A stretch of DNA of 30,494 bases, taken from contig JAKABL010000001.1 of assembly GCA_021801885.1 (NCBI GenBank), positions 1 through 30,494 on the forward strand, written 5' to 3'. This document shows, piece by piece, positions 3,942-5,018 of the stretch. Position numbers and translations under genes: made by a program. The notes under the pieces are model-generated. The model searched no databases. It saw nothing but the letters and a program-made list of their open reading frames with translations, and was not told the DNA's origin. Within the stretch, counting starts at the first letter, position 1. Each line of letters starts with the position of its first letter. Source of the DNA: a bacterium (lineage in GTDB: Bacteria > Patescibacteriota > Minisyncoccia > UBA6257 > 2-01-FULL-56-20).

Positions 3942-3966
3942 AAAAAATCCCCTACGGGGATTTTTT
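3942..3966. terminator. Bidirectional intrinsic terminator between fic and the RT gene
   Basis: AAAAAATCCCC-tac-GGGGATTTTTT; the RT stop codon lies in the hairpin. Confidence 0.85.
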
Positions 3967-5018
3967 GTTGTATCCGTCCATCAACCCCGCTTTTCTCATA
4001 AGCCCGTACGCATCTGCGAACCGCGCATACCCCCGCCAGGAATCCATCGCGCGGCGGTAGGATCCCTCGGTCATCGCGCCGTTCCGCACCATTGCCCGGT
4101 AGCGCCTACGCCGCTTCAGAAATCGCTTCACGGTAGATTTCCGGAGCCGGCGCGTCCCATTGCAGAGCACGTAGCCCAGGAAATCGACGCCTTTGTCCAC
4201 CGGCGCGATCTCCGCCTTTTTCGGGTGGAGCGAAAGCTTGAGCCGCTCGCCAAGGAATGTCCGGATGCGGTCCTTTGCCTCGCGAAGATGGCCCTTGTCC
4301 GTGCCGAGAATGACGAAATCATCCATATAGCGAAGATAATGGCGCTCCTTCAGCTCGCGCTTCACGAAGTGGTCAAGCTCGTTCAGATACACGTTCGCGA
4401 AGAGCTGGCTCGTGAGGTTGCCGATAGGAATGCCGCGCGGATTGCTTTGGATGATCTCGCGGAGTAGCCATAGCGTGTTTTCGTCGTGGATCTTCCGCTG
4501 AAGGATGCCAAAGAGCACTTCGCCGTCGATATTGTCAAAGAATTTGGATATATCGCACTTCAGGTAATATGCGCGCGGCGCGTTCCTCTCTCTCTCTCTC
4601 TCTCTCTCTCTCTCTCTCTCTCTCTCTGAACGCATGATGCCGATTCCAAAGATTTCATGAAATATTCCAAGCGCTTCACCGCCGCATGCGTACCCTTTCC
4701 CTTCCGGCAGGCATACGAGTCATGGATGAACCCCTTGTCCAAAATGGGTTCGATCACATTGCACACCGCGTGGTGCACCACGCGGTCGCGGAAGGGAGCC
4801 GCCTTGATGGTGCGCTTCTTGGAATCGGTCACGACGAATTCGCGGTAGCCACCGTGGCGGTATCGCCCGGTCCCAAGCTCCCAGCGGAGCCGCACGAGAT
4901 GTTCCTCGAGGTCGCGGCCGAACTTCAGGATGGAGGTGCGATAGCGCTTGCACGCGCGGGCATCGCGGTATGCGCGATGCAAATTCTCGAAATCAATGAC
5001 CTGGTCAAAAAGATTCAT
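3952..5018 (-). pseudogene. DGR reverse transcriptase, frameshifted within an (AG)21 tract (phase-OFF state or assembly slip)
   Basis: N-half from ATG 5018 (MNLFDQVIDFENL...KKRTIKAAPFRDRVVHHA...HDSYACRKGKGTH) stops at 4560. C-half in another frame (YYLKCDISKFF...GIPIGNLTSQLFANVYL...RYMDDFVI). Removing one AG unit gives a 354-aa ORF. Confidence 0.92.
4586..4627. repeat. (CT)21/(AG)21 microsatellite inside the RT gene
   Basis: Counted directly; translates as ERERER... Confidence 0.97.

Follow-up and report, generated by a model that had tools for sequence, protein, structure and literature searches.

A dinucleotide tract as a probable slipped-strand switch in the reverse transcriptase gene of a diversity-generating retroelement

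Slipped-strand contingency loci include CT/AG repeats in outer-membrane genes of Helicobacter pylori and poly-G and tetranucleotide tracts in Neisseria, Haemophilus, and Campylobacter. In the systems named phasevarions, the phase-variable gene is a mod methyltransferase, and the switch acts on an enzyme with downstream effects. At the RNA level, transcriptional slippage at homopolymer tracts rescues frameshifted genes in endosymbionts. For diversity-generating retroelements (DGRs), regulation is to our knowledge largely unknown, and no on/off control is known to us for any of the thousands that uncultured ultra-small bacteria carry. Keeping a working receptor under constant mutation would be costly, and a repeat-length switch in the reverse transcriptase (RT) gene would be such a control, readable directly from DNA.

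The locus described here shares its parts and their order with the DGR of Bordetella phage BPP-1 (mtd-avd-TR-brt; bRT structures 8ub7-8ube), as well as adenine-specific differences between template repeat (TR) and variable repeat (VR) and the RT motif IGxxxSQ. Unlike BPP-1, in which the bRT linker is short (RRTRATH), the RT clade of our locus bears a repeat at this place. The consulted parts of the report on the gut phage Quimbyvirus describe a DGR RT in three overlapping frames, read as two programmed ribosomal frameshifts, and note that all earlier predictions of DGR RTs had been single ORFs (Benler et al. 2021, PMC8008677). The two cases are alike in that the RT is not one ORF and yet the VR shows adenine-specific variation. 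They differ in that the Quimbyvirus shift places are fixed, with no simple repeat or length polymorphism mentioned in those parts of the report, whereas a variable repeat and all frame offsets were found here. Frameshifted RTs beside intact repeats also resemble the "inactivated" DGR RTs with intact TR and VR of the DiGReF survey (PMC3521204), and broken candidates with premature stops were discarded by Wu et al. 2018 (PMC5758913). The DiGReF cases were read as decay or sequencing error; in contrast, a conserved repeat is the place of the break in our locus, the break could in principle be reversed, and the gene is under purifying selection.

The RT tract resembles simple-sequence contingency loci in being pure and intragenic, with a unit count that sets the frame and varies between otherwise identical genomes. 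Natural ON and OFF alleles occur among relatives, the gene is otherwise conserved, and the host is one that favors slippage. Unlike in the known loci, the gene proposed to be switched encodes neither a surface antigen nor a methylase but the enzyme that drives a further and more powerful hypermutation system. The hosts differ too, being ultra-small CPR bacteria with a free-living or episymbiotic life instead of host-adapted pathogens, and the tracts are unusually long, with up to 30 units. Slipped-strand loci and DGRs are each well known, and in the literature searched we found neither a published link between them nor a DGR or DGR RT described as controlled by repeat length.

The DGR cassette and its split reverse transcriptase gene

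The window, the whole stretch of 30,494 nucleotides analyzed here, corresponds to positions 1 to 30,494 of contig JAKABL010000001.1 (assembly GCA_021801885.1). The following features were annotated, with the basis of each in parentheses.

7272-7290, minus strand: second AG tract, (GA)9.5 (Tandem Repeats Finder [TRF] and genome census)
5803-7326, minus strand: DGR target gene (Pfam N_methyl, E = 1.9e-7, and FGE-sulfatase, E = 3.7e-11)
5804-5918, minus strand: VR at the 3' end of the target gene (direct repeat and TR alignment)
5381-5731, minus strand: accessory variability determinant (Avd), 116 aa, adjoining the TR (Pfam bAvd PF22296, E = 4e-28)
5206-5320, minus strand: TR (direct repeat family and alignment to the VR)
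4560-5018, minus strand: N-terminal part of the RT with fingers and motifs 1-2, 152 aa in the present frame (translation)
4586-4627, minus strand: (AG)21 microsatellite, the proposed switch (TRF; (CT)21 on the plus strand, 100% perfect)
3952-4635, minus strand: C-terminal ORF of the RT, P0001, 227 aa, with motifs 3-7 and thumb (RVT_1, E = 5.6e-16)
3943-3968: A-run/GC hairpin/T-run between the convergent RT and Fic genes (read from the sequence)

The annotated parts make up a complete DGR, whose target, VR, Avd, TR, and RT share the minus strand. The target has a type IV pilin-like N-terminus (leader MLDKG-FTLIELLVV) and a C-terminus of the FGE-sulfatase/C-type-lectin fold, where the PF03781 match covers residues 268-507 and the VR finishes at the stop codon. 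Its alternative starts are ATG 7326 (507 aa) and ATG 7254 (483 aa; called so in L167, another assembly). TR and VR form a 115-nt repeat of 89% identity, and because all 13 of their 13 differences lie at TR adenines, the DGR must have been active in the past. The N-terminal part of the RT gave a weak RVT_1 match (profile positions 7-69) and is 95% identical to the corresponding part of L002, the closest other species. The motifs LKCDISKFF, IGNLTSQ, and YMDD were read in P0001, which places it among DGR-clade RTs. The hairpin at 3943-3968 is a probable bidirectional terminator on its sequence; the consensus scan did not pick it up.

The cassette lies within an island holding an integrase, the Fic gene, and a C5 DNA methylase, with gatB and ssb as flanking genes. 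The host genome, a 97%-complete CPR-type assembly of 651,810 bp, contains one RT of the DGR kind, and the RT clade of the window was present in only 3 of the 23 species representatives of the genus. Neither P0001 nor the N-terminal ORFs of the window had an exact match in the protein collection.

The (AG)21 tract is located in the linker joining RT motif 2 to motif 3 and is read as (Arg-Glu)n. Minus-strand translation from ATG 5018 passes the tract as (RE)n and reaches a stop 8 codons later, at codon 153, the C-terminal frame being offset by +2 nt relative to the N-terminal part. When tracts of 10 to 26 units were swapped in silico, a single stop-free ORF was obtained only if n mod 3 = 2 (11, 14, 17, 20, 23, and 26 units), with 354 aa at 20 units. 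This class is called ON here, and both OFF classes (n mod 3 = 0 or 1) are one unit away from it. An earlier note on this DNA had described an RT split into two frames inside the AG repeat at 4586-4627, restored to one ORF by 17, 20, or 23 units (354 aa at 20), with GNLTSQ and YMDD intact and no further lesion. The split was confirmed by TRF and translation, the restoring lengths by the swaps, and the intact motifs and absence of another lesion by swaps and translation together.

In a comparison of the in-frame homologue P0009 with solved structures, the nearest was Bordetella bRT 8ub7_A (E = 1.8e-58), relative to which the RE tract of P0009 is an insertion within the short linker leading from the post-motif-2 helix to the motif-3 strand. 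In an AlphaFold2 model of the same homologue (mean pLDDT 82), the tract formed coil with pLDDT 44-65 between helix 111-127 and strand 150-155. A loop such as this one, disordered in the model and tolerant of length changes, is the kind of site where a frame-setting repeat can spare the in-frame enzyme.

Tract length in the same strain and in related reverse transcriptases

Five further contigs of the same strain were reached via the 90% protein cluster of the RT C-terminal ORF. With identical 20-nt flanks, the six assemblies had 21 (window), 16, 12, 19, 16, and 16 units, the NCBI MAG GCA_021832965.1 contributing 16 and four ENA assemblies contributing 12, 19, 16, and 16. Contig L163 showed 0 mismatches to the window over 5,666 nt besides an 18-nt tract gap, and 12 mismatches over a longer stretch of 11.6 kb; in L165, the 1,222 nt compared apart from the tract had 0 mismatches. 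As consensus sequences, the contigs could carry a slight assembler bias in tract length; three independent assemblies agree on 16 units. The length polymorphism that the earlier note had suggested seeking in reads was detected in contigs instead, with 12, 16, 19, and 21 units in near-identical DNA, and by this alignment the tract is by far the quickest-changing site of the locus. All six strain alleles were out of frame, with no in-frame allele among them (chance expectation 0.09). L163, the sole same-strain contig spanning the VR, carried a VR identical to that of the window. The VR of L164 differs, but it is uninformative on recent retrohoming because the entire target gene is about 12% divergent.

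A protein search with the RT C-terminal ORF returned thousands of RTs. Among the best 120 of these matches, about 45% were C-terminal fragments of ≤240 aa, many of the sampled fragments starting at or just past the tract site, and several full-length matches bore (RE)n exactly there. From species-representative genomes and metagenomes, 160 loci were taken, and the 149 holding both RT halves were scored for frame and junction. A simple repeat was present at the RT loop in 40 of the 149 loci, namely, AG/GA in 31 (13-60 nt), (CA)23 in one, poly-G of at least 8 nt in 5, poly-A in 2, and poly-T in 1. Dinucleotide tracts were uninterrupted in 30 of 32 cases, without synonymous Arg or Glu codons, and in-frame tracts spanned 13 to 58 nt. 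Where the earlier note had named fixed short tracts in homologues as evidence against a switch, the relatives instead carried long pure repeats at the site, in both frame states. Protein-level selection for (Arg-Glu)n was rejected as the cause of the tract, the DNA being pure AG, CA, G, and A repeats also occurring there, and most copies being out of frame.

The presence of a repeat was closely associated with the state of the frame. The RT was split in 29 and intact in 11 of the 40 repeat-bearing loci, compared to 3 broken and 106 intact among the 109 repeat-free loci (Fisher P = 1e-18). Frame offsets 0, 1, and 2 occurred 11, 16, and 13 times in the repeat-bearing loci (chi-square P = 0.62), an evenness that matches the expectation of a random walk. 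A single step of this kind was observed between L025 (33 nt, OFF) and L122 (35 nt, ON), which encode the same RT protein in near-identical DNA over 5.5 kb and differ by one GA unit that flips OFF to ON. Further ON and OFF states in relatives were found in L020 and L121 (ON) versus L138 (OFF).

An assembly or sequencing artefact in the low-complexity tract has to be weighed, as polymerases stutter on dinucleotide repeats and the tract is where some contigs break off (L003). This explanation is highly improbable: the tracts of 24-42 nt fall below both the k = 141 given in the contig ids and the length of ordinary reads, the agreement on 16 units comes from independent assemblies, and errors on in-frame genes would not give 29 OFF loci out of 40, spread evenly over both OFF classes.

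The same distribution of offsets bears on the possibility that the two halves are made separately as a split enzyme or are joined by a fixed +1 or -1 programmed ribosomal frameshift. In the window, ATG 4635 opens the C-terminal frame just ahead of the tract, and such shifts are the explanation given for the phage DGR RT in three frames (PMC8008677). A C-frame ATG upstream of motif 3 was present in only 6 of the 29 OFF loci and a start codon was lacking in 11 of the 29, the 16-unit sister alleles have no C-frame ATG, and the C-terminal ORF of L001 begins past the catalytic Asp. With no conserved internal start, the split-protein reading was ruled out. Both OFF offsets are equally common and no single shift serves both, and the uniform offsets (11/16/13) together with the variable type and length of the repeat ruled out a programmed frameshift; the probability that we leave to either version is close to nil.

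In the RT tree, the clade of the window (29 rows, support 98) comprised 19 repeat-bearing members interleaved with in-frame repeat-free ones, and a second clade (8 members, support 100) was AG-bearing throughout. On this tree, the repeat must have appeared or disappeared about 18 times, and about 10 switches between ON and OFF are required. In a control set of 80 phage DGR RT loci obtained with the same query, a repeat at the site was present in 0 of 80 and the RT was intact in 79 of 80. A phage origin of the RT clade was not supported, the best IMG/VR match being 49% identical and repeat-free.

Selection on the split genes and competing readings

Pairwise comparison of OFF genes gave dN/dS values of 0.04-0.18 in both the N- and C-terminal halves (Nei-Gojobori), and intact repeat-free pairs gave 0.08-0.12, with dS often >1. 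Because purifying selection is strong in both halves, the OFF genes are to be regarded as switched off and not dead. As judged from these substitution patterns, the catalytic half has been translated and selected throughout lineage divergence, despite about three-quarters of the sampled alleles being OFF.

A frameshift marking a decaying DGR would agree with the treatment of frameshifted DGR RTs as inactivated in earlier surveys (PMC3521204; PMC5758913) and with the six out-of-frame alleles of the strain. Against decay stand the absence of a second lesion, the intact TR, VR, and Avd, the dN/dS of about 0.1 in both halves of OFF genes, and the in-frame alleles within the same clades. The pseudogene reading was ruled out by the dN/dS values and the lack of other lesions, and we grant a dead gene hardly any probability.

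The genome-wide census placed the tract in context. The (AG)21 tract exceeds every other simple repeat of the 651,810-bp genome in length. Just one other AG/CT run reaches 5 units or more, the (CT)9 at 7272-7289, which belongs to this DGR cassette as well, and all remaining dinucleotide runs are CG/GC of ≤7 units. A search that detects both MutS domain V and the MutL domain in 11 of 14 control genomes found neither in the present genome, which is 97% complete. In a genome without MutS and MutL, slippage should stay uncorrected, and against that background it is telling that the rest of the genome has so few repeats. Being the longest genomic repeat, with the other AG run in the same cassette, the tract is no chance feature.

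These observations also inform a non-adaptive reading, in which slippage expanded an Arg/Glu-coding stretch in a permissive loop and the resulting hotspot is tolerated, OFF alleles being a mild load that is regenerated and reverted. Such a hotspot would fit a genome without mismatch repair, a loop that is disordered and variable in length, frame classes in neutral proportions, and the degenerate in-frame remnants (RER and RERN) in repeat-free relatives. It is nevertheless very unlikely in our assessment, since expansion is not general in the same mismatch repair-less genome, which has no comparable repeat elsewhere, and since the tracts have stayed pure at a single site in lineages so diverged that dS is saturated. 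Four repeat types occur at this one site, the approximately 18 changes on the tree indicate that repeats were gained and kept repeatedly, and another AG tract lies at the target gene of the same cassette.

The serious rival to a DNA-level switch is slippage at the RNA level, in which the tract would serve as an expression attenuator: RNA polymerase slips by one AG unit and every allele makes a little full-length RT at a steady level. Similarly to the transcriptional rescue known from homopolymer tracts, an out-of-frame gene would then be under selection because slippage restores the frame in some molecules; unlike that rescue, which acts on RNA and is not heritable, length changes are documented here in DNA. 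Each OFF class is exactly one unit from ON, and the poly-G and poly-A tracts that some relatives carry in this position are of a kind classically prone to transcription slippage. Equal use of the frames would be expected if the DNA frame hardly mattered, and purifying selection despite 72% OFF loci fits continuous expression. In Escherichia coli, 2-nt transcription deletions are enriched in dinucleotide repeats, but G-rich dinucleotides including GA/AG are less deletion-prone, and such deletions do not rise with repeat number (PMC5574713). Moreover, DNA-level length changes are frequent, so that there is a heritable component regardless, and repeat-free derivatives are in frame in 106 of 109 loci, indicating that the frame matters for retention of the gene. 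As the full explanation, RNA-level rescue seems unlikely, though less so than the other rivals. Slippage of RNA polymerase on the tract could yield some in-frame mRNA from any allele; OFF would then mean low expression, and the heritable DNA component would not be removed.

Proposed switch and the second tract

The tract is probably a slipped-strand contingency switch built into the DGR RT gene, a reading from sequence that the earlier note had advanced and that gained support from the length polymorphism, the recurrence of repeats in relatives, and the purifying selection on OFF genes. In the proposed mechanism, the in-frame tract would add a flexible (Arg-Glu)n segment, whatever its length, to a disordered linker on the protein surface, flanked by the fingers helix after motif 2 and by the beta-strand with the first catalytic Asp (motif 3). 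Replication slippage would gain or lose 2-nt units and cycle the gene through its three frames. In the window's strain, n mod 3 = 2 would correspond to ON (354-aa RT at n = 20), and in the OFF classes translation would stop 8-17 codons past the tract, leaving a truncated product of about 150 aa that lacks every catalytic motif. From such a fragment no cDNA would be made, and the VR of the pilin-like target would be frozen. The window (21 units) and its five sister alleles (12, 16, 16, 16, and 19) would all be OFF under this scheme.

The rate of switching, the abolition of retrohoming in the OFF state, the coexistence of an ON minority, and the adaptive value of the switch are parts of the model that we infer. 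The same applies to the suggestion, also made in the earlier note, that a subpopulation would diversify the pilin while the others keep a selected variant. The OFF fraction of 72% (29 of 40 repeat-bearing loci) equals the neutral two-thirds, and it gives no direct sign of selection favoring ON at the time of sampling.

If the switch is real, two stochastic diversity generators are stacked, with slipped-strand mispairing in command of mutagenic retrohoming. Surveys that drop RTs with premature stops (PMC5758913) will in that case have undercounted such DGRs and mis-scored them as dead. Repeat counts in metagenomic reads would offer a ready marker of the DGR ON state, by which the relation of RT state to VR turnover becomes directly testable in time series.

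A broader proposal, to which we give slightly better than even chances, is a two-tier hypermutation hierarchy by which ultra-small microbes (CPR/DPANN-type) without mismatch repair would generally regulate their DGRs. In the first tier, a hypermutable repeat would be recruited repeatedly to one permissive RT loop and gate the whole retroelement; this recruitment appears convergent because AG, CA, poly-G, and poly-A all occur at the loop. In the second, the target would be gated by the other AG tract of this cassette, which lies at the 5' end of the pilin-like gene that is diversified. Populations would be mostly OFF, which would keep a selected receptor variant intact and spare the cells the burden of an error-prone RT, and an ON minority, constantly regenerated, would explore new variants.

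The (GA)9.5 tract on which the second tier is based lies 17 nt upstream of ATG 7254, the start at the prepilin leader, and is in frame with ATG 7326, reading SERERER. A promoter-like site, TTTACA-17-TATGGT, is located upstream of it at 7366-7338. On this arrangement, the tract may be a second switch, acting on the target gene. Its length was unchanged in L167, the one same-strain contig that spans it. At the equivalent place, L002 has (GA)15, likewise in frame with an upstream ATG, and in L005 a G10 run is positioned upstream of a pilin-like target.

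Repeats at the reverse transcriptase loop of related loci

At the junction between motif 2 and motif 3 of the reverse transcriptase (RT), the loop that carries the AG tract in the window, repeats other than AG, namely (CA)23, G9 to G12, and A9, were present in eight related DGR RT loci (L109, L008, L019, L105, L038, L030, L095, and L116). All of these relatives that hold both RT halves were out of frame. The variety of repeat types (CA, G, and A) at the same loop suggests that different hypermutable tracts were recruited to it convergently. Among more distant DGR RT loci, a run of G9-G10 or T9 preceded the RT start by 15-38 nt in L050, L046, L158, and L141, and an in-frame (GA)8-11 was located elsewhere, within the RT or just past its end, in L079, L080, L035, and L051. 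These repeats may represent further forms of repeat control.

A second AG tract and the repeat content of the genome

An additional AG run was identified in the window at the following position:

7272-7290, minus strand: (GA)9.5, the second AG tract, at the 5' end of the DGR target gene

The tract lies 17 nt upstream of a prepilin-type start ATG at 7254 and shares its reading frame with the ATG at 7326. In the nearest other species (L002), a (GA)15 was found at the equivalent position, approximately 299-328, likewise in frame. The (GA)9.5 may act as a second switch, on the DGR target gene. Besides the RT tract, it was the sole AG run of the whole genome, from which long simple repeats were almost absent outside the two DGR tracts; the next-longest were (AGCCCC)5 with 30 nt and (CCGC)4 with 16 nt. 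Neither MutS (PF00488) nor MutL (PF01119) was found in this genome, which is 97% complete.

Differences between contigs in the target gene, VR, and TR

In contig L164, the segment of approximately 4.2 kb spanning Avd, TR, RT, Fic, and integrase was 100% identical to the window except for the tract length, and the target gene was approximately 12% divergent from window positions 5700-6900 over its full length, including the VR. This combination points to strains having exchanged the target gene, or to the cassette having moved from one strain to another. The near-identical RT loci L122 (ON, in frame) and L025 (OFF) were one GA unit apart, and the VR of L122 had a 77-nt internal deletion relative to L025 positions 1435-1511, which might reflect either aberrant retrohoming or the collapse of a heterogeneous VR during assembly. 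The start of the NCBI sister contig (L001, positions 1-125) was TR-like, with many mismatches to the window TR at non-adenine positions, and then ran into a TR 3' flank identical to that of the window; this stretch is a different TR or else a chimera, at the contig end, that involves another VR.

Probable mobile island and other features of the window

The DGR region between gatB and ssb is probably a mobile island. It is listed here with two further features of the window:

1273-13000: island holding the DGR, probably mobile, flanked by gatB and ssb
14432-21187, minus strand: RNA polymerase beta (Rpb2 domains) and beta-prime (Rpb1 domains) fused in one 2,251-aa ORF
27042-27116, minus strand: tRNA (ARAGORN), anticodon or identity undetermined in the call

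The island contains genes for a tyrosine integrase, Fic, and a C5 DNA methylase, numerous small ORFs, and a 442-aa ORF with no Pfam match. The RT clade was found in only 3 of the 23 species representatives of the genus.
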